64,000 nt of DNA, taken from contig CAYOYV010000002.1 in the NCBI GenBank assembly GCA_964408285.1, positions 44,833 through 108,832 on the forward strand, given 5' to 3'. This document shows positions 19,177-36,680 of this stretch, in pieces. The DNA is from an uncultured Nitrososphaerota archaeon (lineage in GTDB: Archaea > Thermoproteota > EX4484-205 > JAAOZO01). The notes under the pieces were generated by a model. That model was not told where the DNA came from. It saw only the letters and a list, made by a program, of their open reading frames with translations, and did no database searches. The stretch's first letter is position 1, and each line of letters opens with the position of its first letter. The position numbers were made by a program, and so were the translations under genes.

Positions 19177-19225
19177 GGAACCGTTCACCTTTTTAAGCCG
19201 TTCGCTAATTCTAGAAGTTGTAATC

Positions 19226-20686
19226 ATGTCGGTCTCCGGTTTGGAAAGGGTTGGCATTGTTGCCAGTGATTCAAGTGAGGCAAAGGCCAGGCTTCTCCTT
19301 GAGGAATCAAGGGAACTGACCGTGAGAGCGGAGGAATTGGTTGTGATTGAGACTCAGAAAGGCGAAGTCTTGGGAGTGCTCCGAATAGGGAGTGGAATCA
19401 ACGAGGCACTCAACCCCAATGCTTACAGGCCAAGCATTGCATACGCCAAGAAGGGAGGAATCCCCTCTGGAGCCAGGGAGATATATACATTCGACATTCA
19501 TGTAATGGGCGTAATAACTGAGAAAGGGCTGGAACAGAATCGTCTGATCATTCCCCCAAGGAGCAATGTCTACATCTTCCCGGAAGCTGCTCGCAATCCC
19601 CTGGAACATGTTGCCGTGGGCAAGGAGGTGGTCTGGAACGCCCATCTGGATAGGCATGAGAATTGGAAGATCCCGTTCGACAAGACATTCCTAGCATACC
19701 ACATAGGCGTCTTTGGAGCTACAGGTAGCGGGAAGTCATGGTTGACCCGATATGTCATAGTTCCTGTACTTCTCGAAGCAGGGATGAAGGTCTTGATGCT
19801 TGACTGGGGAGGAGCCGACTATGTACCGCATTACGGAAAGAAAGCTATCTCCATGTCTGATCTCAAACTGGACGATGAAGCAATTGTGAGATATCTACTT
19901 CAGAAGGCAGAGCACTTCGGCTACACCGGGCAGATGAGGGATTCCAATCCAGTGAGGGAGGCCTTGGAAGATTTTGTCTCAAAACAATGGGAAGAGGAGT
20001 GCAGGAAGGAACCTGAGATGATATACATCGACATGAAGAACTACCTCAGGAATCACATTGATGAGGCTGTCACCAGAGATGATTTCAGGAGGGCAGCTAG
20101 GCGACGCATGGATTATGGCTTCAAGAAACTGGATGCATTTGACTTGGGGGCAGTACGGGGCACTTTGGCACTGGAGGATCTCATCTCAGACCTGAGGAAT
20201 GAGGAAGGAGGTCTGAGGGTGATAGATATGAGCTTGGTTGGAAGCGACGAGAAGCTGTCGCTGTTCAATTCCCTTGCCAGGTTCTTGGAAGATGAGATGG
20301 AAATCGGGAAATCGCTCAACATGGCTCTGATTGTGGATGAAGCCCCCCAATACGCTCCTTGGGAACCGAGGGGGATTCAGGGTGAGGCGACAGAACACAT
20401 AAAGAACCTTTGTGCTCTTGGAAGAAAACACAACCTTTGCATGTCACTGATCTCCCAGGGAATAGCGGGAGACATAGGAATCAACGCAGCAGTGAGGAGG
20501 AATCTGAATACTCAATTCTTTGGGGCTCTACATCCGCTTGACATGATGGAGGCTGACAACTGGCTCAAGCCCTATGGCATTCAGAAGGAATATCTCCTAT
20601 CCCTTAGGCCAGGTCAATTCTATTTTGTCGGGAAGGCAAATCCCTCTCCAATTCCTCTCCTGATAACCTTCAGGCCGGAGACCTGA
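19226..20686 (+). CDS. herA: HerA-like ATPase (HAS barrel + DUF87)
   Basis: N-terminal beta-barrel; HIGVFGATGSGKS Walker A; LIVDEA Walker B; GRK...ISQ. Confidence 0.85.
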   Translation: MSVSGLERVGIVASDSSEAKARLLLEESRELTVRAEELVVIETQKGEVLGVLRIGSGINEALNPNAYRPSIAYAKKGGIPSGAREIYTFDIHVMGVITEKGLEQNRLIIPPRSNVYIFPEAARNPLEHVAVGKEVVWNAHLDRHENWKIPFDKTFLAYHIGVFGATGSGKSWLTRYVIVPVLLEAGMKVLMLDWGGADYVPHYGKKAISMSDLKLDDEAIVRYLLQKAEHFGYTGQMRDSNPVREALEDFVSKQWEEECRKEPEMIYIDMKNYLRNHIDEAVTRDDFRRAARRRMDYGFKKLDAFDLGAVRGTLALEDLISDLRNEEGGLRVIDMSLVGSDEKLSLFNSLARFLEDEMEIGKSLNMALIVDEAPQYAPWEPRGIQGEATEHIKNLCALGRKHNLCMSLISQGIAGDIGINAAVRRNLNTQFFGALHPLDMMEADNWLKPYGIQKEYLLSLRPGQFYFVGKANPSPIPLLITFRPET

Positions 20687-20692
20687 TCCCTC

Positions 20693-21892
20693 ATGTCGGA
20701 GGACTCACACTCTGCCTGGAGCAAACTGCCCATAGATCTTCAAGAGCAGTTCTACGGCAAAGTGGAGCAGGAAGCCAGGAGCCTGATAAAGGTCCTACAA
20801 GAGAGTGGAGTCGCCCTTGAGGAGGCAAAGCCAAAGATAAGGCCATACATACATGCCTCCACATTCGGAACCGACACGAATACGAAGATAGGGGCTGTGG
20901 ATGGGTCATTCTCCCCTAGGGCAAGTGAGAGGATTGGGGGTAGATTCGCGGTGTACTCTGCAGGATTTCTGATGCTAAAGGACAAAGAGATTACAGATGA
21001 AGGCTATTGGGGAGACGATTTCAGACAAGATCAATCATATCCTCATCCTCTATTCACAGCAGGGTTGCAGGTCATCGAGTCCGAAATCGAGAAGGAAGCT
21101 TCACTGCGAGCGTTGGAAAAAAACCCAGACCTGCTTCTCGTCGATGGCGGCTTCCTTGGATTCGCATATTCTTTATTCAAGATCAGAAAAGAAACAAGCG
21201 TTCCGGATTGGCTGGAGAAAAGAGCCCAACATGCTCTGGAGATGACGTATAGATTGCTGGACTCCGGAAAGTGCGCAGGAGTTGTCAAGAGGGGAAGAAG
21301 CAGAGCAATAGGAGGGTGGCTGTCGATGTTGGCAAGAAGAAGGAGCCCTCTTGTTAGATATCTTGACAAACAGATATTGTACGCCATGATGTCACCCCCT
21401 TCGGTTCTAGATTACGCTGAGATCCTAGGACGGCCGGGTTTCCACAGAACACATACAAGAATCAGTGAGCTTCTAGACAGTGGAAGAACAACGGACCCAA
21501 TCGAGGCAATGGAAGAGGCTAAGTTCTGGGCTGTGAACTCAATGGCAAAAGCTCTCGGAACCACCGACGAGAGAAAGATCAGGGATTTGGAATCACGCAT
21601 TAACAGGATTCAAATCAGGGTCAGCGAAGATGCTCCTCCCTTTGAACTGGAGCTGGCAGCAGGTTCCGAAGACCGAATCATGAGAGCTTTGTTCTCAAGC
21701 TCGGATAACTTCAATCGGGCAACTGGACTCCCTATCGCGATAGATCTTGTCGATGAATATGTGTCCCTCCCCATGGAGTTCACAAAGGAATTCGTGACAG
21801 AGGTCGAGGCTAGATTGGCACAAATGTACGAAGGGGATCTAAACGACGTAAAAGGATTTTTCTCGAATATGAATCCTCAGAAAGAGTCGTAG
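20693..21892 (+). CDS. nurA: NurA-family nuclease
   Basis: GAVDGS, E..A, LLLVDG, GVVKR and GLPIAIDLVD motifs; 6 bp downstream of herA. Confidence 0.82.
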   Translation: MSEDSHSAWSKLPIDLQEQFYGKVEQEARSLIKVLQESGVALEEAKPKIRPYIHASTFGTDTNTKIGAVDGSFSPRASERIGGRFAVYSAGFLMLKDKEITDEGYWGDDFRQDQSYPHPLFTAGLQVIESEIEKEASLRALEKNPDLLLVDGGFLGFAYSLFKIRKETSVPDWLEKRAQHALEMTYRLLDSGKCAGVVKRGRSRAIGGWLSMLARRRSPLVRYLDKQILYAMMSPPSVLDYAEILGRPGFHRTHTRISELLDSGRTTDPIEAMEEAKFWAVNSMAKALGTTDERKIRDLESRINRIQIRVSEDAPPFELELAAGSEDRIMRALFSSSDNFNRATGLPIAIDLVDEYVSLPMEFTKEFVTEVEARLAQMYEGDLNDVKGFFSNMNPQKES

Positions 21893-21993
21893 GTGGTGTC
21901 AGGATAAGCAGATAATACAAGCAAATGTGAGACCAGAGATCGGAATTACGAATCTCTTATATAGCTTTGGGGCTCTGCCTTAATAGCAGAAAA

Positions 21994-24624
21994 ATGAGAA
22001 GAGAAGAAATGGGATTAGTAGGCCTCTCGTTCTTGATTCTCTTACTGTTATCGTATGTCACTCCAAGCATGCTCTATATGGCATCAGCTCCTGTGTCCGA
22101 ACTCGCTAGGACATTTTGGCCAACTGATGATGCCCAAATCTATCAGAAATACCCAGATTCCAACTACGGTGGTCTTACATGGGTGGCCGTCCAGAGCGCG
22201 ACTTCTGAGAATTGTCGCGGCTTGCTACGCTTTGACCTGAGCAACATCCCGCCCGGTGCCAAGGTGATTTCAGCAAGGGTGTATCTGTTCAAATACATCG
22301 CACCTTCGGTATCGAGAACGTACTACTGCCATCCCGCCAGTAGTTCCTGGTCAGAAAGCTCACTAACCTGGAACAATCAGCCAGGAATATACACAACAGG
22401 ATCAACCACGGTTATAGGTACGACTCCAAGCACATGGTCAAGCTGGGATGTGGCTTCATCGGTTCAGAAGTTCGCGGCGAGAGATGCTGCCAGTGCCGCA
22501 TCAAACTACGGATGGAAGATAGGGGATAATAGTGAAGGTTCGGTCACTACTTATCAATCCTTCTTCTATTCGAAAGAACACAGCGATGCTGCATATCGAC
22601 CCTATCTGAGACTGACATATTATCCCCCTCATCTTGAACTCCAAACATATGGCTCGTCATTCGTTGCCGGGAATTGGGTCAAGATGACAGTGAATAGGAA
22701 GGATTACGATAACAACCCAATAACCAGGGGTAATCTCAATGTCAAGATGACCTCAACTTCAACTTCACTGAACAAGAAATTCTCTCTGTCAGAGGGAGGA
22801 GCAGCTATTACAAGCTTGGTTATTCCAGACGGTTCAAGCTCCAAGGACTTCTGGTATTATGATGACAAGGCAGGGACTTGGACAATCCAGGCATTCACTG
22901 ACGATTACATGTACTACGTGAGCGGAGTTCCCCCGTACATGATATTTGAGATGAACTACGGCGATGATAAGGCGCAGCAGACTGTGAATCCGGCCGCTCT
23001 GGATCGTTTCGTCCTGAATACGATATCGTCTCCCAAGACTGCTGGGGAAGCCTTTATGATAACTATCACAGCAAAGGATGTCTACGGCAACACTGTAACA
23101 ACCTATACCGGCACGAATTCGCTTTCAGACACGACTGGAACAATGGCGCCACCGTTGACGGGTGCCTTCGTGTCTGGTGTGTGGTCCGGGAATGTAATCA
23201 TCAATAAGGTCGCTTCCGCAGTTAGGATTTCAACGTCAGGGGGAGGGAAGACAGGGCAAAGTAACGCTTTCGATGTGAAGGCTGGCCCCCCAGCGAAAAT
23301 TGCCATAAAGCCAGCGACATTGACTGCTGCTGCAGCAGTCCAATATTCTTCAATCACACTTTCTATTAGGGACAGTCACGACTTCAATACTTCAAGTGCC
23401 TCGGCGATAGTCATCGCGCTATCTACAACATCCCCTGACGGGGAGTTCAGGAATCCAGGAACTACGACGAGGATAACCAGCATCACCGTGCCTCCCGGCG
23501 CGACTTACGTGCTTGTTGACTATTTTGACATAAGAGGTGGGACTTGGATACTCACCGCCTCTGCTGCGGGCTTGAGTTCTGGAACAGCAACGGTCACTGT
23601 AATCCCTGATACTAGGCCACCGGAAACCAGCATTAATGCCGGTTCTCCCAAGTATCAGACCAGCACAACTCTATATGTTACAGATCTCACAGCATTTACG
23701 CTCTCTGCTATTGACGACGCTAGCGGAGTAAAGGAGACCAAATACAGGATAGACACCGGGCCCTGGACTCTATATTCAGGAGATTTCAATCTGGGTACGT
23801 ACTCCGAAGGGACTCACACCATCGGATTTTACAGTGTTGACAGGGCAGGCAATTCAGAGCCTGAGAGAACTCTATCCGCTTTCATCGACAAGACACCTCC
23901 CCGGGTCCAGATCATAGAGCCAGTGGGATCGGTCGTGGCCAAGACAGCTTCTGTCAGATTTAGGGCCTCAGTTGTGGAAACAGGTTCTGGCATTGCCACT
24001 ATTGAGTGCATACTTGATGGAACATCAAAGGGCCCGATGGCAAAGGAAGGAGAGGCATATGCAATTACCTTGGATGTTGTGCCTGGAATGCATAGATGGA
24101 GTGTTGACGCAGTAGACAATATTGGAAACACCTTGGGGGCAACTGCTGAGACTCAATTCATCCTGACAATCGATACTGATCCCCCAGTCATATCAAACGT
24201 TGCTCTCTCCCCTCCGTCACCTGTTTGGATGGAGCAAATCAAGGTGTCTGCCTCGATAACAGATGCGGCATCGGGCCTGAAGCAAGCCACCCTATATTAC
24301 TCAACCGATAGTGGTGCAACTTGGAGCAAGATCACCATGACTCCGACCGCAGGAGCCTTCGAGGCCACAATTCCCGCCCAAGGACCAATGGCGAAGGTAC
24401 AATACTACATCGAGGCCTCGGACCTGCTTGCGAATACAACCAGAAACTCCACTCAGGAGATCTCAATAGGAATACCGATCTGGGGTTATGGCGCTGGAGG
24501 CCTGATCATCGTGCTGATTCTTATATTCCTACTGACAAGGCTCACGGGTAAGCCTGCTCAGGTGCCCTCGCCCACTTACCCACCACCCCCTCAGCCCCAA
24601 CCTCCTCCGCCGCCACCTCCCTAG
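21994..24624 (+). CDS. Cell-surface protein: DNRLRE domain, several Ig-like domains, C-terminal TM anchor and poly-Pro tail
   Basis: Signal/TM; DAQI...PDSNYG...RGLLRFDLS...FYSKE...RPYL; DTRPP/DKTPP/DTDPP Ig-repeat junctions; YSVDRAGN; TM then PPPPQPQPPPPPPP. Confidence 0.8.
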   Translation: MRREEMGLVGLSFLILLLLSYVTPSMLYMASAPVSELARTFWPTDDAQIYQKYPDSNYGGLTWVAVQSATSENCRGLLRFDLSNIPPGAKVISARVYLFKYIAPSVSRTYYCHPASSSWSESSLTWNNQPGIYTTGSTTVIGTTPSTWSSWDVASSVQKFAARDAASAASNYGWKIGDNSEGSVTTYQSFFYSKEHSDAAYRPYLRLTYYPPHLELQTYGSSFVAGNWVKMTVNRKDYDNNPITRGNLNVKMTSTSTSLNKKFSLSEGGAAITSLVIPDGSSSKDFWYYDDKAGTWTIQAFTDDYMYYVSGVPPYMIFEMNYGDDKAQQTVNPAALDRFVLNTISSPKTAGEAFMITITAKDVYGNTVTTYTGTNSLSDTTGTMAPPLTGAFVSGVWSGNVIINKVASAVRISTSGGGKTGQSNAFDVKAGPPAKIAIKPATLTAAAAVQYSSITLSIRDSHDFNTSSASAIVIALSTTSPDGEFRNPGTTTRITSITVPPGATYVLVDYFDIRGGTWILTASAAGLSSGTATVTVIPDTRPPETSINAGSPKYQTSTTLYVTDLTAFTLSAIDDASGVKETKYRIDTGPWTLYSGDFNLGTYSEGTHTIGFYSVDRAGNSEPERTLSAFIDKTPPRVQIIEPVGSVVAKTASVRFRASVVETGSGIATIECILDGTSKGPMAKEGEAYAITLDVVPGMHRWSVDAVDNIGNTLGATAETQFILTIDTDPPVISNVALSPPSPVWMEQIKVSASITDAASGLKQATLYYSTDSGATWSKITMTPTAGAFEATIPAQGPMAKVQYYIEASDLLANTTRNSTQEISIGIPIWGYGAGGLIIVLILIFLLTRLTGKPAQVPSPTYPPPPQPQPPPPPPP

Positions 24625-25609: not shown

Positions 25610-27145
25610 ATGAGTGGGATTAGGTTCAGATATTCCGGCATCGTCGCATTCTCTGCCAATATCCTTTCGGTCCTCACGGGTCTTATCTTCTCGGTTGTGG
25701 TGACAAGGAGGTTATCGGTGCAGGAGTTTGGCACTTGGCAATTCTACTCGAGCTCATTAGCATATTTCGCCTTGCCCTCATATATAGTGAATTACTGGCT
25801 CACAAGGAACATTGGCCGTGGCAAGAGTGCTGTGAATTCAGCTCTGACGTTCAATGCCGTTTTCTCTTGGCTGGCGACGATCCTTTTCTTCGCAACATCG
25901 ATTGTTCTGACGAACTACGCTTATGCTTCCAATGAGGTGATTATAGTCTTCGGGATTTGGCTCCTAACGTCATATCTCTCTTCCACAACTGACGCCGCTG
26001 CCTCCGGTTCGCTTCCACACTTGTACGGATACGGGGTAGCGGTGTTTGAACTGGCCAAGGTCATCTCTGGCGCGATTCTAGTTGCTTGGCTAAGACTGGG
26101 GCTTGCAGGAGCCGTGATTTCCGTCGATATCGCACTATTACTGAGGTTCGTCCTTCTGTATTTCCTTGTTCCAGAGTCTCTAAAAGGGAGGATTGGGTTC
26201 TCAGAGGCATTTGGCTGGCTCAGGAGATTCTGGATTCCGCTAACCAGTGTTTTGCCGGGTCTGATATTCTCCCTAGATGTAATTCTTGTAACCATAATAA
26301 CGGGCAATCCAACTTCCGCTGCGTATGTCAGAGCCTCCACGACCTTTTCGATGGTGATTCTATTCTCCAACTCCCTTTCCATCGCACTGTATCCGAAGCT
26401 TCTATCTGGAGGTGGTAGAAAGGAAATCGAGGACTCCCTAAAAATGGTAATGATGTTTGCGATTCCGATGTTCTTGGGCATTTTCTTCCTTGCCGAACCA
26501 TTGCTCTATCTTCTAAGGGCTCAGTATGCCACCGCGGTATGGGTATTGAGAGCCTACGCAACTCTACATTTCCTGGGAACGATCAAGGCGATTCTTATCA
26601 CGATTCTTCTTGGCACAGAGAAAGTCGACATTGACGAAACGGCAACATACAAGGAATTCTCGTCTTCATCGTTGATGAAGGTGCCAATGGCCGACATTCT
26701 CAATTCATCGATATATATCGGCGTGATTCTAGTTTCGTCCTTCTGGCTGAATTCTATTGGAACCGAACCTGTGATGCTCTCACTGAGTCTGGCAGTTATC
26801 TACATTGTGGCAATGCTGCCATTTCTCCTATACTATTGGAGGGCCTCGAAGAGAAGAGTGGAGTATTCGTTCCCGGTTGGGAGTCTCGCAAGATACCTCG
26901 CAGCAGGTTCAGTGATGGTTTGCTTCCTGTTGTTCTTCTTCCCAACTGGAGCTATGAGCGAGCAGATATTCAACGTCATGGTGTCCCTACTTCCAGTGAT
27001 CGGGGTAAGTGCCATCCTATACTTCTCAGTTCTGATCGCAATAGATGGAGAAACAAGGCAGCTCGTCGTATTGGTGCTAGCGAGAATTGAGAAAATCATC
27101 AAAGACCTCCAGTCTCCCATTACTCAATCCGACAAGGGGCAATAG
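25610..27145 (+). CDS. Wzx/MOP-superfamily oligosaccharide flippase
   Basis: About 14 TM helices; VTRRLSVQEFGTW N-terminal pattern and ALYPKL motif of polysaccharide exporters. Confidence 0.78.
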   Translation: MSGIRFRYSGIVAFSANILSVLTGLIFSVVVTRRLSVQEFGTWQFYSSSLAYFALPSYIVNYWLTRNIGRGKSAVNSALTFNAVFSWLATILFFATSIVLTNYAYASNEVIIVFGIWLLTSYLSSTTDAAASGSLPHLYGYGVAVFELAKVISGAILVAWLRLGLAGAVISVDIALLLRFVLLYFLVPESLKGRIGFSEAFGWLRRFWIPLTSVLPGLIFSLDVILVTIITGNPTSAAYVRASTTFSMVILFSNSLSIALYPKLLSGGGRKEIEDSLKMVMMFAIPMFLGIFFLAEPLLYLLRAQYATAVWVLRAYATLHFLGTIKAILITILLGTEKVDIDETATYKEFSSSSLMKVPMADILNSSIYIGVILVSSFWLNSIGTEPVMLSLSLAVIYIVAMLPFLLYYWRASKRRVEYSFPVGSLARYLAAGSVMVCFLLFFFPTGAMSEQIFNVMVSLLPVIGVSAILYFSVLIAIDGETRQLVVLVLARIEKIIKDLQSPITQSDKGQ

Positions 27146-27147
27146 AG

Positions 27148-30100
27148 TTATCTCGTTTCTACTCCCTCGGCTGGTTGTTCGTATGTCAAGAGTAGCTTTT
27201 CAGCTTGGACTTCTGTGTATTTGCTGCCCGAGATTATCGCGACGTTCTTTTTCAGGATGATGCTGGCCAAAGTCATCGCAGAGCTGATGGCCCCGTCGTC
27301 TGAGTCTATTGTGACCGTGTCCACATCCCTGAGTTCCTCCACGAGTCTGGATACAGTGCCCTGTGGATTCTCCACCGATATCTTCCTGACTTCTATAGCA
27401 GGCGGCCAAATGCCCTCCCTCCACAATTTCCTCTTCAGCTCATTCATTTTCTGAGTCGTTTCTCCTCTTGAATAGACTATGAGAAGCTGCGGATGATATA
27501 CCCTAACTAGAGAGAGGAGGGGCTCAATTGAACTTCCGAATGGAGCAGCAACCCTTGCCTTCGAGGCGGTCCACTCGAATACCAGCCTCCTTATGTGAGA
27601 AGCGACTTCGTGGACCTGTGTCTCTGCCATCTTGGGGTATGCGGAGTCTGGGTTTACCCTGAGTGAGACCTGAAATCCAGTTCCTTCTCCGCTTTTGACT
27701 TCTATTGTATTATTCGAGGTGAATCCCTTGTTTCCGCTTCTGCTGTACTTGAACCTAACAGAGTGAAGAGGCCTACCATATTCGTCAACAGTGGACTTCT
27801 TTGAGACTTCGCCTATCAGTATCTCTAGTTGCTTCCCGCTTGCCGGCAACCTTTCGGCCAGATAATCGACCAGAATATTCACCTTCTCTTGGGGAACTCG
27901 GGCAGGTATTTGCAGGATCCATTCATTTCCTATCTTCGCATGTTCCTCAAGCTTCCACTTAATCCTGAGAGAAGGCGTTGCAATTCTCGATGCGGTAAAT
28001 GCAGGGATTGCTGCGCCTATCACGGAGACCAATACAGAGATCCCGACTATTGAGAGCATGTCGCCTGTTGATGTCTTGACGTCGACGGGTATTGAAACGC
28101 CTCCTAGAGAGAAAAGACGGAATGCGGCGAAACTCAGCAGATAACCGATTCCTCCACCTATTATTCCAAGCATAGCTCCCTCCGCCACATGGAGAAGGAA
28201 TATGTGCGTTGGATTCAGGCCCACAGCGGAAAATGCGAATATCTCCGACCTTCTCTCTTGGACCGATGAGAGCAAAACCACTAGTATGTTGAGGACGATT
28301 ATGACAAGTGGGATAATTGCTGAAACTCCCGTCAGCTCATTGACGGAACCCCTGAAGAAGAAAACCGGATTCCCACCACTGGGAAGTGCGAGGGCATAGA
28401 AATTAGCGAGCAAAGACAGCCTTTCTCCCGCAGAAAGAATGTCCTCGCTACGGACTTCACAATACAGTTTTGACACCCTTGCTCCAAGTTTCATTGAGGT
28501 GGTGTCAGACGCAAGCAATAGGAATTCCGGGTCAACAGTAGTGTTCAACGCTGCCGGGCCTGCGACGATCTGTATTGGCAGCCATTCCGCTCCATCTGGG
28601 TCCTTTAGACTCCTCAGTCTTGAACCATCGAAAACTCCAACAATCAACAGCTTGACATTCTTGAACACCAATGACATGCCGACTTCCAGTCCCTGTGATC
28701 TTGCAACGTAGTCACTTATGAGAACGGAATTTCCCTCCAAGAATAATCTGTCTGTTGCGTTTCGAGGATTGGTTGATGCCTTGATAACATCAATGTTTGG
28801 ATCGCCTTTCGCTATTCCTCTCACGGCCATTATCGTAACTGAGCCTATCTCCCCTATGCCAGACTGGGATGGGGGCGATTCAGCCTTCGCATAGGCCCCT
28901 ATTAGGCCCGACTGGCTTGAGACAAAGTCCAAATCAATCCGAGTGAAGAATCCAGTGGGTTTTGACACCAGAATAAGACTTGGGCTTTCGAGTGGCCACC
29001 TGGAATTCATAACGAATTGGCTAGCCCCAATAGTTGTCCTCATCGCGCTGAAAGTCGATAATCCCAACACAAACGTGGTAAGGGATATCAGGGATAGCAG
29101 TGTCCTTGTCTTCCTTTTCTTCATGTTCCCTGACGAGTAAGAAATGGCCAACATTATGGCGGGGACTAGGCTGACCCCTCCCTCACTCCTATAGTTGCTC
29201 ATCAGCCTCGGCAAGAGGAAGAAAAGAATCAAAGCCACGAACAGGAAATAGGATCCGATTATGGCCTCCCCGAAGGAGAATTGAGCAAATCCAGGATATG
29301 TCTGATACACGATCGTCATCACCACTGCGAATGAGATAACAAGGAAGACTACTTCATCGCTGATCTTCTCAAACAACGAACCTGCCAAAGCAACGCAGAC
29401 CAAGATCACAAGAGCGAAGATGGCCACTTGGCTGGTCGTCGCGCCCTTGTATATTGTATTCATAGCACCCAGTATGTTCATGCTGACCAAGTACGCCCTC
29501 TTCTGGGCTTCTGCACCAACAGCAGGATTCACTGTTGAGTTGAATAGGATCAAGGCTCTGTCTATTTCTTCTAGCCTTTGGGATTCCAGGCCAAGATAGA
29601 ACCCCTGCAAGCTCTGCTTCTCCACCGCCTTCTTGGCCTGTTCCACCATTCTATCGACCAGCATTTGATTCCTAGCAACCAACATTGAGGCGAGTGAGGT
29701 GGAATTCACCGTCTCGCTTTCCTCCGCAATCAGAGGCATCGAAGCATTCCCCAACGAGCCATAGATTATCTCATTGCCGATCCTTGCCTTCAGGGTGATT
29801 GCCAGAGGGATGTCAGAGGGAATTACAATGCTGCTGGGGTCTATGTTGAGAAGCCTGAGGTAAACGGCGTTCGTACTGGTGTAGTTCGTAACGAGGCTGG
29901 TTCCTTTTGGCAAAGCATAGACCTTCTCGAAAAGGACTCCGATTGCTTTGAATGATAGCTCGATGTCCGGGATTCTGTCTTGAGATATCTCAGTGACGAA
30001 GTTTGCTATTTTGACAATGGAACCTGGGATTAGGGTCAGATTAGCCGATTTCCTGTCGCCCGGGTTCGCATTGCCAAGACTCGCAATGACAGGAACATAT

Positions 30101-32595
30101 ACGCGATCTGACTCAATCACGGGGCCCCATAGCTCCAATCTACTTGTGCTCGGCATGCAAGTATAGGCCGAGCCGTTACGGACTTCCAAGAACCTGTAGG
30201 AATCACCCAGGACTAGCAGGAACAGAGAACGCGAAGGCATTTCGGCCCCAGTCAAAGAAACCTGCAAAGCAGCTGCCGCCCTGACGGAGAAGTCAAAGTG
30301 ATTTACATCCTGAATGGAACCGTTGTTTGACTCGATGTACGTTTCGAATCTCAGACGATGACTCGAGTCCAAAAACGCTGGCATACGCAATGGAAAATGC
30401 CCAGCAAGAAAGGGCACCGAGTCGCTGCTTGGGATTGTTACGTTGAAAATGCCTGAATCCATGATTGAAGAGGTTGTCAGATCCAAGAGCCTCCAACTAA
30501 GCCTAGCGTTCTTCGCAGCATTCGGATCGTCATTGACTATCCAAACGTTGAGTCTGACAAGGGTTTCGAGGTCGCAGCTTAGCTCGGTACGCTTTGTGAT
30601 GAAATCCCCTGCCCATTCTATGATCGCATGAGTCGGCCTAAACGCCTCGGAGACAATAAGACTGGAGGACTTCTGCGTCCCATAGTAGTCCAATAGAGAG
30701 CCGGATACGGAGGGAAGGTAGTCCCTGAATAATCCTACAGTGATCCCTTCGGTATAGTTCCCCTTCAACAACCTTGCCCTTTCAATTGCCGTCTTCAATA
30801 TGGTGGCCTGATATCCCTGGCTCTCGTTCACGTAGTCAGAAAGGCTCTTGTATTCCTCAGGATTACCAAGATAGGAATACCATAGATTTGCTGAATAGCC
30901 ATAGCCCTCCAACGAACGAATTAATCCGGAGGAGATCTGGTTTCCTTGGAACATAGACCAGAAGATAGACTGAGCTGAAGGAAGGGATTGAGATCCCAAT
31001 ACGACCGGGAATGCCGACAAGTAGGATCTATAATTCTCCCAAGTCCGAGAACCCCATCCGAAATTCAGGAATTCATTCTCACTGCCAGAACCTTCTATGG
31101 TATGTCTATCGTGGTCCAACTCGCCCAACAACTCGGACAGAGACGCATCTGCCATCCTGTTGGCTCCTAATCTGAATAGATCTCCTGCACTTTCATCTGT
31201 CCAAGGGGGGAGTGTGTGAATACACCAGAGGACAACGCTCGGGCTGTTGTAGAGCATAAGTACCAACCTGATCAGTTGTCTCTGTGCCTCCCTCAAGGCC
31301 TCTTTGTCTGTGTCCAAAGACTTGGCATATCCGATCAAAGGCAGATCGCCCTGGACCATGAAGCCGTGGGCGTCAGCGTATTCATAGAAAGCAAGGGGTT
31401 CAACATGTGCGATTGGTCTAAGGAAATTCACATTCATCTTGCGAAGTAGCTCATAGTCCGCGGCCAGATTGGCTGTTGAAGATGTGAAATTGTATGGATC
31501 CGATACATACGTTGTCCCCCTTAGGAAAATTCGTCTTCCGTTAATCGAGAACCTGGATCCAGTGTTACCAAAAGCTGCCACGAAATCTCTGAAGCCAAAT
31601 GCTCCGCTTATAGAGCCCTGACTTTTCGAGCCAACGAGCAGCTCGACCTTGAACTGATAGAGGTTCGGAGAGCCAAGATCCCAAGTTGACCAAGGAAGTG
31701 GATTTCCCGCTGCCAGATTCGCTTCCACCCACTTTGCCTCACCTGGATCAAGATCTGCCTTAATCCAGGACATCAAGGGTGATTCCTTCGAGCCGTCTAG
31801 ACTCACCGACAAGGAGATGTCTGTTGAAGCCTTTGCTGTACCGGTGTTCTTTACGAACAAACGGAAGTTTGCACTTGCGCTGCCCCCTAGGGTCCCAGCA
31901 ACAAGCGCGAGTTGAACGACAGTGCTGCCCGTTGTTGCCAGTTCGACATCATTCCACAGACCGATAGGCATTGCCGGATCTGTGCCAATTGGACCAATGC
32001 TTTGCCCAATGGGTCCGCTTGTTCCGTAGAGGCCAGTTAGGAGCCCGATCGACTCCTTATCTACAAGTGAATCAACGAACACCGTCAGCAGATTGTCAGA
32101 ACCATGAACAAGGACATTAGTCACATCGAAAAAGAAGGGAGAAAAATATCCTGTGTGAGAACCTAGGTACCTACCATTGAGCCAAACATCTGCCTTTGCC
32201 CAAACGCCCTTGAAGACGATAATGTATCTCTCCCCCTTCAATTCAGTAGGCGGCGTGAAGGTCCTCCTAAGCCAGAGCGTGGAATTATGTCTCGTAGACT
32301 TGAATTCAAAGGGGACGACAACCTTGTTCCAAGAGCCATCATCATAGGATTCTTCGTAATATAATTCATAGTTGCCCCGCTCGAATGTGTCGTAGACATA
32401 TTTCCATTCTCCGCTAAGTGAGATCTTAGTAATCGCGAAATAGTTGGGTTGTATGAAGGTTTGGAGCACCTCTTCCGTTATCCCCTTCTCAGCCGGAACT
32501 ATGATGTATTGTAGAATTGGAAGGAAGGCGATCCAAATCGTGAACAATGCGATTAGGACCGAAGACAACAAGCGCAGCCTCGTCCTATTCACCAA
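27148..32595 (-). CDS. 1815-aa fusion: N-terminal TM, GH2 (beta-mannosidase-like) module with degenerate active site, MacB/FtsX-type permease, C-terminal CARF-like domain
   Basis: GH2: SLSGEWKY, VWLNGRYLGSHTGYFSPF, WSTWDLGSPNLY, FGFR, INGRRIFLRG. FtsX: KRKTRTLLSLIS, SVQERRSEIFAFSAVGLNP, EGAMLGIIGG. Tail: VAAPFGSSIEPLL...PQLLIVYS...VTIDSDDGAISSAMTLAS. Confidence 0.85.
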   Translation of the reverse strand: MVNRTRLRLLSSVLIALFTIWIAFLPILQYIIVPAEKGITEEVLQTFIQPNYFAITKISLSGEWKYVYDTFERGNYELYYEESYDDGSWNKVVVPFEFKSTRHNSTLWLRRTFTPPTELKGERYIIVFKGVWAKADVWLNGRYLGSHTGYFSPFFFDVTNVLVHGSDNLLTVFVDSLVDKESIGLLTGLYGTSGPIGQSIGPIGTDPAMPIGLWNDVELATTGSTVVQLALVAGTLGGSASANFRLFVKNTGTAKASTDISLSVSLDGSKESPLMSWIKADLDPGEAKWVEANLAAGNPLPWSTWDLGSPNLYQFKVELLVGSKSQGSISGAFGFRDFVAAFGNTGSRFSINGRRIFLRGTTYVSDPYNFTSSTANLAADYELLRKMNVNFLRPIAHVEPLAFYEYADAHGFMVQGDLPLIGYAKSLDTDKEALREAQRQLIRLVLMLYNSPSVVLWCIHTLPPWTDESAGDLFRLGANRMADASLSELLGELDHDRHTIEGSGSENEFLNFGWGSRTWENYRSYLSAFPVVLGSQSLPSAQSIFWSMFQGNQISSGLIRSLEGYGYSANLWYSYLGNPEEYKSLSDYVNESQGYQATILKTAIERARLLKGNYTEGITVGLFRDYLPSVSGSLLDYYGTQKSSSLIVSEAFRPTHAIIEWAGDFITKRTELSCDLETLVRLNVWIVNDDPNAAKNARLSWRLLDLTTSSIMDSGIFNVTIPSSDSVPFLAGHFPLRMPAFLDSSHRLRFETYIESNNGSIQDVNHFDFSVRAAAALQVSLTGAEMPSRSLFLLVLGDSYRFLEVRNGSAYTCMPSTSRLELWGPVIESDRVYVPVIASLGNANPGDRKSANLTLIPGSIVKIANFVTEISQDRIPDIELSFKAIGVLFEKVYALPKGTSLVTNYTSTNAVYLRLLNIDPSSIVIPSDIPLAITLKARIGNEIIYGSLGNASMPLIAEESETVNSTSLASMLVARNQMLVDRMVEQAKKAVEKQSLQGFYLGLESQRLEEIDRALILFNSTVNPAVGAEAQKRAYLVSMNILGAMNTIYKGATTSQVAIFALVILVCVALAGSLFEKISDEVVFLVISFAVVMTIVYQTYPGFAQFSFGEAIIGSYFLFVALILFFLLPRLMSNYRSEGGVSLVPAIMLAISYSSGNMKKRKTRTLLSLISLTTFVLGLSTFSAMRTTIGASQFVMNSRWPLESPSLILVSKPTGFFTRIDLDFVSSQSGLIGAYAKAESPPSQSGIGEIGSVTIMAVRGIAKGDPNIDVIKASTNPRNATDRLFLEGNSVLISDYVARSQGLEVGMSLVFKNVKLLIVGVFDGSRLRSLKDPDGAEWLPIQIVAGPAALNTTVDPEFLLLASDTTSMKLGARVSKLYCEVRSEDILSAGERLSLLANFYALALPSGGNPVFFFRGSVNELTGVSAIIPLVIIVLNILVVLLSSVQERRSEIFAFSAVGLNPTHIFLLHVAEGAMLGIIGGGIGYLLSFAAFRLFSLGGVSIPVDVKTSTGDMLSIVGISVLVSVIGAAIPAFTASRIATPSLRIKWKLEEHAKIGNEWILQIPARVPQEKVNILVDYLAERLPASGKQLEILIGEVSKKSTVDEYGRPLHSVRFKYSRSGNKGFTSNNTIEVKSGEGTGFQVSLRVNPDSAYPKMAETQVHEVASHIRRLVFEWTASKARVAAPFGSSIEPLLSLVRVYHPQLLIVYSRGETTQKMNELKRKLWREGIWPPAIEVRKISVENPQGTVSRLVEELRDVDTVTIDSDDGAISSAMTLASIILKKNVAIISGSKYTEVQAEKLLLTYEQPAEGVETR

Positions 32596-32653: not shown

Positions 32654-35062
32654 TTGGATAGCTCGCAGAGGATTTCTTTGGCGTCTCAGGTCTTCAGTGC
32701 TTTGAAGGCAAGGATCATCTTGATCTTGATGATCGCAATTTTGGTCTTTGCCCTTGCGTCCATAAAAACACTGTTCAGGGAAGGCATGATCCTTGGTCGG
32801 GACCATCCATTCCACATGCTTAATTGCTACTTCACAACGCTCTATATGTTACCGTCATTCAACATTCTTGGTTGGGATCCATACAACAACTATGGCTTGG
32901 TCTTCAATCAATACTACGATGCCGGGACGAACATCCTCATATCTCTGATCTACTACGCCTCCCTGGAACAGCTGAATATATTCGATTCCTACAAGGTTGC
33001 CTTCGCACTTGCCTATGTTCTCATGGCACCGGTTACCTACCTCTTCATTTATTCGATTTCGAAGGATAAAATGGCCGGGTTGGTGGGAGCACTGCTTTCC
33101 ATAATCGTGTTCCCAGCCGAGTCTTCCTTGTTCGATGCCGGTTTAAGACAAATGTACGAGACAGGAATGTGGCCTGAGAGATTCGGCAACGTACTCTGCT
33201 TTTTCGGTCTTGCTCTACTGATTCTGTCCTTTGAGGAGAAAAGCCTCTCGAAGAGGCTGCTGACAACGGCATGGACTTCTGTGATTTTCGCCTGGACCGT
33301 CTTGACTCACGTTGTCGCAGGCCTATCTTTGGCTTCACTGGCAGCAGTCGGATGGCTCCTGCCAAGTCTCCATGACATCAAGTCCGCCATTACCGAAAGC
33401 AAAGACGGAATTCCTGGAATGGTCACGACAATTCTGCATCAGAACCGGAGGAAAACGTTCTCCTATCTCTCGGTTTGGGCCCTTTCCATCGGCCTGTGTG
33501 CTTTCTGGACTATTCCCCTCCTGGAGACTTTAGAGAAGTTTTACAGCTTCCCCGCTATCTCCTCATCGGGGGGGACAGACATGCTTGTCCAGGTATTCCA
33601 GAGCCTCCCATGGTATGTGTTGGGTTTCTATGTCATAGGGGCCGCAACACCTTTTCTCGACAGGAGACAGATAAGGAATCCTCTTGCGATTGTGTCCCTT
33701 GCATCAGTCCTACTTCTTCAGATCCTGTCGTTGGTCAACCCAAACGACAAGTTCGTTGGGACAAGGTTGGTCTTCTCCGCATTGTTCTCCCTCATCTACT
33801 ACCTGACAACTGATGATTACGCTGTTGGTTTTTCCCTCACCGGGACCTCACTTCTCCTTCTTCTTTCCACGGGTCCAAGCACGCATGTGATCGATTTGCT
33901 CATCTTCAGACTGGACCTTTCGAACGCATTCTCCGTCGTTGCCTCTTTCGGGTATTCCAAGTTCGCCTCGGTGGCGCGGCTTGTGATTGTCATACTGTCT
34001 TCGATCGGATTCTCAAGATTGGCCAGCTTCCTTTATGCTCATGCTAGAACCGCTGGCTCCAAGAGGGAATTCGTCCCTGTCGTCTATTCAATCGTGCTTG
34101 GATTCATGATCTTCCTATTCCTCAACTTCCAGATCAGCACTCAGATGGAGAATACTGATCTGAACTATCCCTGGTCCCAGCAGATCAACCTGAAGCTCTC
34201 ATCCGATTTTCGACTTGTGAGTCAAGCCGATTCGCTGATCTCATGGATCAAGCAGAACGGGGATAGCAATTCCTACATCTTGATGCAGGACATCCTTGAT
34301 ATCGGAGACTGGATGGGTTTCCCGAAATCCCATTATCTGTACCTTACACCGGTTTTCACTGGAAAACCCATCGTGGGAGGAGTAGAGGGCAGCAACTATA
34401 TCACCAATCCGATCTCCACTACCGACGGGGGCCAAATTCTGTCAATGCCAATCTCCAGGATAGTTGGGGAACTGGGCACATTCGACAGGCTGCTGGGAGA
34501 ATTGGGAATAGGCCATGTTGTGGTCTTCGATATTAGATTGATCAAAGCCATGAATGCCAGCAGCCTGTTCCGCCTCTCGTACTATGACGGGTTATTTGCC
34601 GTCTTCAGAAGAGCAGAGCCCGCGTACATAGCCAGCGTTCAGAACGCCGGGGAAATCCTTGAAGCGACCTACGAGATAAATGCGATGTCCTTCAAGGTCT
34701 CTGGGGCTGAAGGCAACTCGTCACTTCGTATAAGAGCTGTCGATTATCCGGGATGGTCTGCCAAGGTGAACGGAGAAAGCACAGAGATTCATCAGTATCG
34801 CCCTAAGATACAATCAGTGATGAATTGGAAGGGGGTCGTCGTTCCGGACTATGAAGTCCCATTCATTGAAATCTCATTGCCCGCCGGTCAATCACGAGTA
34901 GTTCTTGATTACCATAGGTCAACGGCCGGGGACTCGATCACAGGTGTCTCGCTTGTGCTGTTTGCCGCCTTCAACCTGCTTGGATCAGCCGTAATCGTGA
35001 AAGATCTCTATGCTAAGAGTGGTTCATCTGTCAAACATGCTGCGTTGAAGGGATTTCAGTGA
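32654..35062 (+). CDS. GT-C-type multi-pass membrane glycosyltransferase (PTPS-related/YfhO-like)
   Basis: GRDHPFH after the first TM; GWDPYNNYG...FNQYY; many TMs; C-terminal DYPGWSAKVNG (YfhO-like) and a final TM. Confidence 0.75.
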   Translation: MDSSQRISLASQVFSALKARIILILMIAILVFALASIKTLFREGMILGRDHPFHMLNCYFTTLYMLPSFNILGWDPYNNYGLVFNQYYDAGTNILISLIYYASLEQLNIFDSYKVAFALAYVLMAPVTYLFIYSISKDKMAGLVGALLSIIVFPAESSLFDAGLRQMYETGMWPERFGNVLCFFGLALLILSFEEKSLSKRLLTTAWTSVIFAWTVLTHVVAGLSLASLAAVGWLLPSLHDIKSAITESKDGIPGMVTTILHQNRRKTFSYLSVWALSIGLCAFWTIPLLETLEKFYSFPAISSSGGTDMLVQVFQSLPWYVLGFYVIGAATPFLDRRQIRNPLAIVSLASVLLLQILSLVNPNDKFVGTRLVFSALFSLIYYLTTDDYAVGFSLTGTSLLLLLSTGPSTHVIDLLIFRLDLSNAFSVVASFGYSKFASVARLVIVILSSIGFSRLASFLYAHARTAGSKREFVPVVYSIVLGFMIFLFLNFQISTQMENTDLNYPWSQQINLKLSSDFRLVSQADSLISWIKQNGDSNSYILMQDILDIGDWMGFPKSHYLYLTPVFTGKPIVGGVEGSNYITNPISTTDGGQILSMPISRIVGELGTFDRLLGELGIGHVVVFDIRLIKAMNASSLFRLSYYDGLFAVFRRAEPAYIASVQNAGEILEATYEINAMSFKVSGAEGNSSLRIRAVDYPGWSAKVNGESTEIHQYRPKIQSVMNWKGVVVPDYEVPFIEISLPAGQSRVVLDYHRSTAGDSITGVSLVLFAAFNLLGSAVIVKDLYAKSGSSVKHAALKGFQ

Positions 35063-35453
35063 AGGGAACCAACTGTCAATAATCGCATATGGAAATCGCC
35101 ACCTGTTCAGAGCACGACTCCGAGCAGCACAATCAGAGCTCACAGAAGATGAGCTCGCGTTAAATGTGATTCCAACTAATACCAAGCTAAGTGAAAGACA
35201 AATGGAGATATGAGGCAGAATAGGCAAATGGGGAAGATCCAGAATCAGCAAAGAAATCGATTGGAAGGAAATGGCCAAAGACCTTAGGGCTGACCTCGGT
35301 AGATCAGCATTCGCCTCCAGAACCACATATTACTTCAGCTGAAGAAGGGAGGTGGCGCACTAGGTTGAGAGGCTTTCTAAGACAACTATTCCTAACATAT
35401 CGTGAGCTTGCCTTAAATACGGTTGTGAGAAGGAACTAAACAAGGTGAGAAAC

Positions 35454-36680
35454 ATGGCAGAGAAGATCGTCGTCGAACCTGGAAGAACTGCGGATTTGGA
35501 CACCTTCGATGGAGATTTGGTGGCAGGTGGAAATTCGGTCATCAAATCCAAGTCAGGAGGCCCAATCGTGGTGACGGGCACGGCTAAATTCAAGGGAGAT
35601 TGCAACATTCATTCCAATTTCCAAGCCAAGAACGTAAGGGGAGAAGACGGGAGAATCCATGTGCTTGGTGATCTTACGGTCGATGAATCAATTGATGTCC
35701 GAGAGGGGGAAGTCTTGGTTGATGGCCAAGCAAAAGCCAAGGAAATAGATGTCGAGAGGAGGCTGACGGTCAAAGGAGACCTGCATTCAGAGAGGGTGGA
35801 CGTCGGGGGAAGTCTAGAGGTCGGGCGAGACTCCAATGTTACAAGAGTCAATGTGGGAGGAACCATGTCAATGAATGGCAATCTGAAGGGATCACAGCTG
35901 GATGTAGGTGGGTCGGCTGATGTAAGAGGAACAGTTGAACTTGAGAAGCTCTCTGTAGGCGGAAGCGCGAAGGTGGGATCAGGAACAATAAACTACATAT
36001 CAGTGGGTGGATTCCTTGAGTCAACCGGGAAGCTCAGGTTTCGAGAAATTGATGTAGGAGGCGCAGTAAGATTGGCCTCTGGGGAAGGGGAAGGAATAAT
36101 CAATGTCGGCGGAAAGGTGGATGTTGATGGAGACATCGAATTCAAGGAAATCGACGTTGGAGGGATGGCAACGATCAGAGGCAATGCAAAGGGCAAGAAG
36201 GTAGAGGTAGGAGGGAAGCTCAGAGTGGACAAGAGCGCGAAGATAGATGATAGTCTCGAAGTCGGTGGATCAGTCGACGTCCATGATGACCTCAGCGGAG
36301 GCGACATTGAAGTGGGAGGCTCTCTTCGAAGCAACATATGCATAGCACGCAAGGTGAGAGTTGGCGGAAGGGTCGAGACGGAAAAAGGAACCAAGGCGGA
36401 TGTCTTCGAGATAGGAAAGCGTGGGAATGTGAGAGGCCCTATCGTCGCAACCCGCGTAAGGATTGCAGATGGAGCCCAGGTCGAGGACATCTATGCAGAC
36501 GAAGTGGAAATTCGCAGGAATTCCTCCGCTCGAAATGTGTTCGCAAGAGCAGCAAGGATTGAAGGTGGATGTGAAATCTCGGGGGAGGTGTTGTACACGG
36601 ATAGGTTGGATTCCGACAGGGATGTTCAGTTCGGTTCAGAGCCCAAAAAAGTAGAAAAACTGCCGGGCCCCCCCGTTTAG
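35454..36680 (+). CDS. Long bactofilin-like (polymer-forming cytoskeletal) beta-helix protein
   Basis: 12 xxVGG repeats spaced about 16-18 aa apart; TATA-like cttaaata near 35412. Confidence 0.72.
   Translation: MAEKIVVEPGRTADLDTFDGDLVAGGNSVIKSKSGGPIVVTGTAKFKGDCNIHSNFQAKNVRGEDGRIHVLGDLTVDESIDVREGEVLVDGQAKAKEIDVERRLTVKGDLHSERVDVGGSLEVGRDSNVTRVNVGGTMSMNGNLKGSQLDVGGSADVRGTVELEKLSVGGSAKVGSGTINYISVGGFLESTGKLRFREIDVGGAVRLASGEGEGIINVGGKVDVDGDIEFKEIDVGGMATIRGNAKGKKVEVGGKLRVDKSAKIDDSLEVGGSVDVHDDLSGGDIEVGGSLRSNICIARKVRVGGRVETEKGTKADVFEIGKRGNVRGPIVATRVRIADGAQVEDIYADEVEIRRNSSARNVFARAARIEGGCEISGEVLYTDRLDSDRDVQFGSEPKKVEKLPGPPV

Follow-up and report, generated by a model that had tools for sequence, protein, structure and literature searches.

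We analyzed a stretch of 64,000 nucleotides from an uncultured Nitrososphaerota archaeon (assembly GCA_964408285.1, contig CAYOYV010000002.1, positions 44,833 to 108,832 of the forward strand; hereafter the window). An earlier note, made from the sequence, had placed a CARF-like Rossmann domain at the C-terminus of an FtsX-type permease encoded there. Translation of the minus strand gave a single stop-free open reading frame (ORF) of 1815 codons at 27148–32595. Positions 27190–27561 of that strand corresponded exactly to amino acids (aa) 1679–1802 of the ORF (KARVAAPFGSSIEP...DSDDGAISSAMTLASIILKKNVAII), and the string quoted in the note, KARVAAPFGSS...KNVAII, was read at the place it had given. 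The ORF was listed with a TTG start, and a 99%-identical database protein has 1806 aa. In order, the protein contains an N-terminal membrane anchor, a GH2-like ectodomain, three extra transmembrane (TM) helices, an FtsX/MacB-type permease, a cytoplasmic KA1-like domain and a C-terminal CARF-fold domain (Table 1). The last ~130 residues almost certainly form a divergent CARF-fold domain, in a protein that belongs to the family CARF_m8.

Table 1. Features of the CARF_m8 gene in the window, with the basis of each assignment
Feature	Position	Strand	Basis or remark
Whole gene, family CARF_m8 (GH2-like + FtsX/LolE + KA1-like + CARF)	27148..32595	-	1815 aa membrane protein
N-terminal TM anchor, aa 6-35	32491..32580	-	Hydropathy scan
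Extracytoplasmic GH2-like region, aa 55-660	30616..32433	-	Pfam, NCBIfam and PDB alignments
Remaining ectodomain, aa 661-1050	29446..30615	-	No Pfam or NCBIfam match
Three extra TM helices, aa 1056-1132	29200..29430	-	Hydropathy scan
FtsX/MacB-type module: TM1 aa 1165-1185, extracytoplasmic aa 1186-1420, TM2-4 aa 1424-1536	27979..29103	-	PF02687, NCBIfam, hydropathy
Cytoplasmic KA1-like alpha/beta domain, aa 1553-1677	27565..27939	-	AlphaFold2 model and structure search
CARF-fold domain, aa 1680-1806	27178..27558	-	AlphaFold2 model, structure searches, dimer prediction, PADLOC match
Loop after strand 1, PFGSS, aa 1685-1689	27529..27543	-	P and G in predicted dimer interface
Loop after strand 4, DSDDG, aa 1764-1768	27292..27306	-	Position of Csa3 SGGMR; meets its twin on the predicted two-fold axis

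The hydropathy scan placed TM segments at aa 6–35, 1056–1132 (three helices), 1165–1185, 1424–1445, 1465–1492 and 1510–1536. From the position of the last helix and the usual FtsX topology, we infer that the final 275 residues are cytoplasmic.

The family of the protein was identified with PADLOC-DB v2.0.0 (2023). Its profile PDLC01990, named 'CARF_m8--CARF_Beta-galactosidase_LolE_TM' (1791 positions), matched aa 4–1802 over profile positions 3–1787 (E = 0, 1336.8 bits). The 271-aa tail alone matched both PDLC01990 and PDLC01991 ('CARF_m8--CARF_LolE_TM', 810 positions), each with E ≤ 1e-58. As LolE is an FtsX-family permease, the CARF–FtsX fusion is already a named minor CARF family. By its sequence, the protein is a member of this catalogued family, with an architecture identical from end to end and nothing structural differing. 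The fusion is thus not new, and the full-length match did not support the idea of the earlier note, which knew of no described CARF–FtsX fusion, on this point. The name CARF_m8 is a computational label only; the 'CARF_m' names probably stem from Makarova et al. 2020. Full-text literature searches found no experimental work on the CARF_m8 family, the likely naming paper, Makarova et al. 2020, not being among the texts covered. They also found no literature naming CARF_m8 or joining CARF to FtsX. For CARF joined to LolE, only irrelevant papers were among those listed, and no listed paper combined 'CARF domain' with MacB, ABC permease or mechanotransmission.

Searched exhaustively with aa 1545–1815 as the query, HMMER yielded 48 cluster representatives at E ≤ 1e-3, of which 34 reached E ≤ 1e-10. 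With few exceptions, the tail matches lay at the extreme C-terminus of proteins of about 650–2100 aa, or of fragments. Judged from these matches, the pattern did not arise by chance, and the tail is conserved as a unit. The closest named relative was the NCBI entry 'FtsX-like permease family protein [Thermoproteota archaeon]', and tblastn found no paralogue of the tail in the archaeon's own genome. Four short matches (P0019, P0027, P0041 and P0050) were considered as standalone CARF_m8 proteins; they start within the preceding domain, look like gene fragments and were not counted.

The tail (aa 1545–1815) was modeled using AlphaFold2 with a 49-row alignment. The model had a mean predicted local distance difference test score (pLDDT) of 87.9 and contained two domains. 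The first (module residues 9–133) was predicted as beta-beta-alpha-beta4-alpha, and the second (residues 137–262) as four beta-alpha units followed by a beta-hairpin and a short helix. Modeled alone, the second domain gave a pLDDT of 89.4 and a pTM of 0.81. Its predicted strands are at domain residues 6–10, 29–34, 58–63, 85–87, 109–114 and 117–122, with no helix between the last two, which form a beta5-beta6 hairpin. The CARF core is described in Makarova 2014 (PMC4012209) as six-stranded and Rossmann-like, with strands 5 and 6 forming a beta-hairpin, a Ser or Thr ending strand 1, and a Lys or Arg after strand 4 within the motif [DN]X[ST]XXX[RK]. In the account of the Csa3–cyclic tetra-adenylate (cA4) structure, the beta5-beta6 hairpin removes a covering helix (PMC8699464).

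Structure searches were performed with VIA-align, independently of Foldseek, against 48,161 PDB representatives. The top 16 rows were CARF proteins only, with Z from 13.8 down to 10.0, and all covered module residues 134–258. Csa3 (6wxq) ranked first (Z 13.8; root-mean-square deviation (rmsd) 2.6 over 118 aligned residues), followed by Can2 (7bdv, Z 13.7), VC1899 (12.5), Can2 (8bao, 12.3), Csm6' (11.4), Card1 (11.0), SiRe_0806 and Cad1 (10.7 each), Csm6 (10.6), Crn1 Sso2081 (10.5) and Cam1 (10.2); Cdn1 and Can1 were also among the 16. The first non-CARF Rossmann fold was MurG with a Z of 8.2, so that the CARF chains led by 2 to 5.6 Z units. In Foldseek with the domain alone, ranks 1–9 were all CARF proteins (Csa3, Cam1, Card1 and Can2; E 3.4e-5 to 1.8e-4, TMq 0.51–0.65). 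Csa3 had an E of 3.4e-5 and a TMq of 0.60, Can2 a TMq of 0.65, and Cam1 took ranks 3, 5 and 6. With the two-domain model, ornithine cyclodeaminase-type NAD enzymes had the lowest Foldseek E. These matches were discounted as a two-domain artefact because their superposition was poor (rmsd 13–17 Å, TMq about 0.2). The model and both searches bore out the CARF-like Rossmann domain that the earlier note had proposed. The note had set USP, receiver and PRTase folds against its own proposal; the best matches were instead Csa3, Can2, Card1, Csm6, Cam1 and Crn1.

Sequence-level searches of the tail were less informative. NCBIfam gave nothing relevant, and searches of the PDB sequences, whether by the single tail or by a 12-row profile, gave chance-level matches only (E about 1). 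ESM Atlas scores were 0.76–0.79, under the 0.9 level that counts, and the named clusters were mostly CARF families; we take this as a lead only.

A homodimer of the CARF-fold domain was predicted with an ipSAE of 0.58 (runs 0.54–0.59), whereas the best control scored 0.00. Contacts agreed between runs to at least 92%, and the partner pLDDT was at least 86. Among proteins solved as pairs, 20 of 30 attained the mark used for calling a dimer; among those solved as single chains, 1 of 23 did. The predicted interface consisted of domain residues 88–105 (the loop after strand 4 and alpha4), 110–121 (beta5/beta6), and 10 and 12 (the P and G of PFG), with alpha4-alpha4 contacts at 97:97, 100:100 and 101:100. 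The Csa3 dimer is described as having parallel alpha4 helices that are buried at the interface and lie across beta5/beta6 of the partner (PMC8699464). The predicted dimer is of this canonical CARF mode. A CARF-type homodimer, which the earlier note had named as a check, was thus obtained in the model and was mediated by alpha4.

The loop after strand 4 reads IDSDDGAISSA in the window protein. hhalign against 18 Csa3 CARF domains from related genomes was used for the register and not as proof of homology. It placed I-d-S-D-D-G over L-s-G-G-m-R of Csa3, with Gly in place of Arg98, in line with the degenerate and acidic motif II of the earlier note. In Csa3, Gly96 and Arg98 of L-x2-G-h-R are reported to hold the cA4 phosphates (PMC8699464). 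The position aligned with Arg98 was basic in 1 of 49 rows (P0038), and P0048 has a Lys further along the loop. DSDDG was the commonest form (exactly so in 16 of 49 rows), other rows having SSDDG, NSDDx or ESDDG, and a more distant clade has loops of the SGG, SGE or TGG type. In a 17-row CARF-only alignment, D91 of DSDDG and E120 were each at least 90% conserved. Equating E120 with E122 of Csa3 was considered and dropped, as no residue-level structural alignment was at hand. Near the end of strand 1, Pro at domain position 10 was the main conserved residue (27 of 48 rows); Ser occurred at position 14 in 28 of 48 rows and Thr or Ser at position 9 in 12 of 48. RtcR and Rv2818, both accepted CARF families, mostly have no basic residue after strand 4 according to Makarova 2014 (PMC4012209).

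Compared with the CARF domain of S. solfataricus Csa3a (6wxq, 6w11 and 2wte), which was the best structural match, the window domain has the same strand order, beta5-beta6 hairpin, predicted alpha4-buried dimer and loop register. Differences lie in the motifs and the context. Csa3 has T-h-G-F-(N/D)-E-x4-R and L-x2-G-h-R, as given in PMC8699464, whereas the window domain has Gly at the Arg position and the loop DSDDG. Csa3 is fused to a winged helix-turn-helix domain and is CRISPR-linked, whereas the window domain follows an FtsX permease and appears not to be CRISPR-linked.

The first tail domain resembled KA1 domains in VIA-align (Kcc4, Z 9.8; MARK3, Z 9.5). It also resembled the AMPK C-terminal domain and START/Bet v 1-like folds (Z 8–10), and 'KA1-like' is used here as a fold label only. 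The distribution of the two tail domains was followed in an even sample of 301 genomes of the phylum, mostly incomplete metagenome-assembled genomes (MAGs), in which related genomes are not independent. The tail profile matched 60 of the 301. By hand count, 37 of the 117 listed places covered the CARF half and came from 31 genomes, 78 covered only the first, KA1-like half, and 2 were weak partial matches. The KA1-like domain was therefore far commoner than CARF among these matches. In all 12 sampled first-half-only loci (L047–L058), the ORF ended 1–18 residues after the KA1-like domain. Thus, FtsX with a KA1-like tail is the common architecture, onto which CARF has been added in a subset. One of these loci, L057, belongs to a close relative and stops right after the KA1-like domain, which may reflect CARF loss. 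Several homologues had one in-frame stop inside the tail-profile match (TAA in G071, G006, G157 and G122; TAG in G173, G138, G098, G159 and G248; TGA in G278). These could be true gene ends with profile read-through, or broken genes.

The permease part was matched by the FtsX family PF02687 at aa 1425–1538 (E 5.5e-13; 49.5 bits, cut-off 25.5), and NCBIfam gave partial matches to GH2 and to ADOP/LolCE/MacB permeases. The hydropathy scan fitted the FtsX topology, with TM1, an extracytoplasmic domain of ~235 aa and TM2–4. As in FtsEX, MacB and LolCDE, the type VII ATP-binding cassette (ABC) systems, the window protein has PF02687, four TM helices, a large extracytoplasmic domain between TM1 and TM2, and a conserved ER..EI loop between TM2 and TM3. 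It differs from them in having no fused or adjacent ABC ATPase, a GH2-like domain fused in cis and not recruited, and a KA1-like plus CARF C-terminus. The type VII concept, as presented in PMC5985334 and PMC7668044, is that a cytoplasmic event moves an external domain that controls a hydrolase. In the archaeon's own genome, four small FtsX genes (~400 aa) each adjoin a LolD-like ATPase gene, whereas five giant FtsX genes do not. Apart from the CARF_m8 gene, the giant FtsX-domain ORFs seen there were four of 1045–1495 aa (C4:79522-79845, C4:90936-91259, C30:6007-6339 and C3:182731-183063, by contig), with no adjacent LolD-like ATPase. Another LolD-like ATPase is encoded at C1:146885-147532, with no FtsX gene listed nearby.

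In the ectodomain, Pfam detected the GH2 sugar-binding (PF02837), Ig-like (PF00703) and, weakly, TIM-barrel (PF02836) domains at aa 95–459, which is the GH2 domain order. PDB matches to GH2 enzymes reached an E of 3.6e-21, and the beta-mannosidase 5n6u aligned through aa 660. Among known enzymes, the region came closest to beta-mannosidase and beta-galactosidase. The window protein has HTL and VVLGSQ at the places where HNE and (T/S)EFG(A/S)Q stand in five long homologues. We take the glutamates of HNE and EFG.Q to be the GH2 acid/base and nucleophile. Both presumed catalytic residues are substituted in the window protein, by L462 (31210–31212) and V532 (31000–31002). Among 11 long homologues, 4 had neither Glu (including the 99% twin of the window protein), 5 kept both, 1 had a Glu plus an Asp, and 1 could not be aligned. 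Both glutamates persist in 5 of the 11, so that the family seems to have been enzymatic in origin, with an apparent pseudo-glycosidase in this lineage. Here the ectodomain probably serves for binding and not for catalysis; in other lineages it is probably an active GH2 enzyme.

The CRISPR context was examined in the archaeon's own genome (1.82 Mb, 46 contigs, 93.7% complete). Profile searches found no match to Cas1, Cmr2, Csm1 or the Cas10 palm domain, nor to the cyclase families DAC, SMODS and GGDEF, and a k-mer scan saw no CRISPR-like array. No tandem repeats were seen in the window, and its 48 main ORFs, when scanned, had housekeeping, transport and carbohydrate functions. The absence of a CRISPR context claimed by the earlier note was therefore borne out, and the search for cas10 and other cyclases that it had advised was negative. 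In the phylum sample, the Cas10 palm matched 99 of 301 genomes. A hand tally divided these into 7 of the 31 genomes carrying the CARF module (G039, G095, G085, G122, G159, G248 and G261) and 92 of the 270 non-carriers, leaving 24 carriers with no Cas10 palm match. The Cas10 and CARF genes were on different contigs in all seven.

A gene at 32654..35062 of the plus strand diverges from the CARF_m8 gene. It encodes an 802-aa polytopic membrane protein with ~12 TM helices, a domain on the outside and one last TM helix. Across 15 loci (14 homologue loci and the window), a divergent membrane protein of ~780–802 aa was the only neighbour conserved between families, occurring in 6. The 802-aa protein had no Pfam, NCBIfam or PADLOC match. 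Its language-model resemblance to the GT-C-like YfhO/PTPS_related proteins (score 0.98–0.99, 206–218 shared features) is a lead only. Genes of a surface-glycan context were this YfhO-like neighbour, a DNRLRE/CBM96 surface protein and BacA. The surface protein (21967–24624, plus strand, 885 aa) combines CBM96/DNRLRE with OmpL47-type beta-barrel domains; it also has a C-terminal TM helix and a tail rich in proline, PPPPQPQPPPPPPP. At 25610–27145 (plus strand), convergent with the CARF_m8 gene, lies an ORF of 511 aa with about 12–14 hydrophobic segments and no Pfam, NCBIfam or PADLOC match; it appeared flippase- or MATE-like by eye only. The region 16300–21892 (plus strand) encodes an Lhr-type helicase (958 aa), a HerA-like ATPase (DUF87) and a weak NurA match, which is an archaeal DNA end-resection set. 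A 411-aa protein encoded at 35445–36680 (plus strand) has a bactofilin domain at aa 291–382 and a long, repetitive N-terminal part rich in G, V and D.

FtsX/MacB-type permeases work as dimers, and two CARF domains would therefore pair under the membrane. The best reading, to which we give a probability of roughly 60%, is a non-CRISPR CARF dimer that would sense for, or latch, an FtsX mechanotransmission device. The FtsX dimer would bring two tails together, with the KA1-like domains lying between the last TM helices and the paired CARF domains. As a sensor or latch in the cytoplasm, the CARF dimer would relay its state to the large ectodomains by way of the FtsX transmembrane 'mechanotransmission' scaffold. 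The outcome would be inside-out control of cell-surface glycan handling and not antiviral defence.

Several points weigh against this reading. Pfam found no CARF family at E ≤ 10 with the tail or with the domain alone, the sole match being a chance-level one to TcdB_toxin_midC (E 0.21), and none at E ≤ 1 with 12 family members. The hhalign match to Csa3 was weak (probability 35%, E 4e-4, 65 columns). With these results, it is structure and the PADLOC name that carry the case for homology to CARF. The basic residue that defines CARF is absent, a Lys or Arg occurring in the 11 columns after strand 4 in only 2 of 49 aligned rows. The dimer prediction may have succeeded through resemblance to CARF dimers already solved, and not because the chains truly bind. 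No ABC ATPase was fused to the protein (Pfam) or adjoined its gene, and none was consistently adjacent in the 14 homologue loci, so that mechanotransmission has no evident driver there; an ABC ATPase could act in trans. As both GH2 catalytic glutamates are gone in this lineage, there may be no enzyme activity for the protein to regulate. Failure to match Cas10 in a MAG does not prove absence. The regulatory role is one that we purely infer.

The alternative that survives best, although we consider it somewhat unlikely, is a ligand-free structural module, in which the CARF fold is a constitutive dimerisation clamp for the FtsX dimer and the ligand pocket has decayed. The strong predicted dimer and the loss of the basic residue in 47 of 49 rows fit a clamp. 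So does the wide variation of the loop after strand 4 between clades (DSDDG, SSDDG, SGGSD, SGEPS, TGGAT and others). The CARF domain is also dispensable for the core architecture, because L057 and 11 other sampled relatives have none. However, few positions of the domain are better conserved than the loops that lie on the predicted two-fold axis (D91 and E120), and Ser after strand 1 is kept in more than half of the rows. If the domain were purely a clamp, there would be no need to conserve an acidic loop where ligands canonically bind.

The protein is probably not a type III CRISPR effector. As an ancillary effector it would bind cyclic oligoadenylate made by Cas10 through its CARF dimer and be switched on at the membrane, as Cam1, Cap1 and Chp1 are. 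Its fold is nearest to the cA4-binding Csa3 and Can2, its profile belongs to a defence-system library, and the Cas10 palm was matched in 7 of the 31 carrier genomes. CARF effectors that sit in membranes are known as well: Cam1, Cap1 and Chp1 are described as small pore-formers in type III CRISPR loci that are opened by cyclic oligoadenylate (PMC10808066, bioRxiv 10.1101/2025.11.13.688252, 10.64898/2026.08.05.743128). Like the window protein, for which this is predicted, they carry their CARF dimer on the cytoplasmic side of the membrane, and Cam1 was among the structural matches. In contrast, the window protein has an FtsX/MacB-type membrane part and an ectodomain of ~1000 aa, and 24 of 31 carrier genomes lack a Cas10 match. 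The rate of Cas10 in carriers was no higher than in non-carriers, no linkage on one contig was seen, and the own genome had none of the CRISPR or cyclase matches sought. The genes nearby serve housekeeping or glycan functions, and in the acidic loop the Arg98-aligned position is basic in a single row. Together these observations make an effector role improbable. Among the CARF families, RtcR is not known to be a CRISPR component; it is a soluble sigma-54 activator, unlike the membrane-bound window protein.

It is highly improbable that the domain is a generic Rossmann-like domain (flavodoxin, SLOG or NAD-binding-like) that resembles CARF by convergence: the missing curated Pfam match, the low hhalign probability, the sub-threshold Atlas scores and the NAD-enzyme ranking would allow it, but those NAD-enzyme superpositions were poor, 16 CARF chains came ahead of MurG, the CARF-specific beta5-beta6 hairpin and alpha4-alpha4 dimer are both predicted, and an existing profile already names the family CARF_m8.

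That the domain is a ligand-gated regulator rather than a passive dimeriser is a tentative proposal, at somewhat less than even odds. Because the pocket loop is acidic (DSDDG in each protomer), a bare cyclic oligoadenylate is unlikely as the ligand, if there is one. A cation, a metal-bridged nucleotide derivative or a basic partner would be more likely. With its six carboxylates, the DSDDG/DSDDG site might bind a polyamine or another cation, or else a nucleotide sugar bridged by a divalent metal. A bolder proposal, which is speculative and rather unlikely, is that CARF_m8 left antiviral signalling. It would sense a cue other than cyclic oligoadenylate and relay it via an ATPase-less FtsX to the surface GH2 module, which is beta-mannosidase-like and would work with the YfhO-like GT-C glycosyltransferase.

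The discovery is modest, the fusion being already catalogued as CARF_m8. To that catalogue entry the analysis added structural confirmation, a dimer prediction, the pocket analysis, the absence of a Cas10 link, the modular history and the loss of GH2 catalytic residues in this lineage. CARF domains have been studied nearly always as cyclic-oligoadenylate receptors of type III CRISPR systems, and CARF_m8 sits on an FtsX-type permease with a glycosidase-like ectodomain. If the domain senses a ligand, the signalling roles of CARF would be widened beyond defence, and the protein, with all parts fused in a single polypeptide, would offer a model of how events in the cytoplasm are passed to extracellular domains via FtsX-type scaffolds in archaea. 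If the bolder proposal of a relay to the surface GH2 module is true, CARF_m8 would represent an inside-out switch by which archaea remodel their cell-surface glycans, and CARF-driven mechanotransmission would have its first example.

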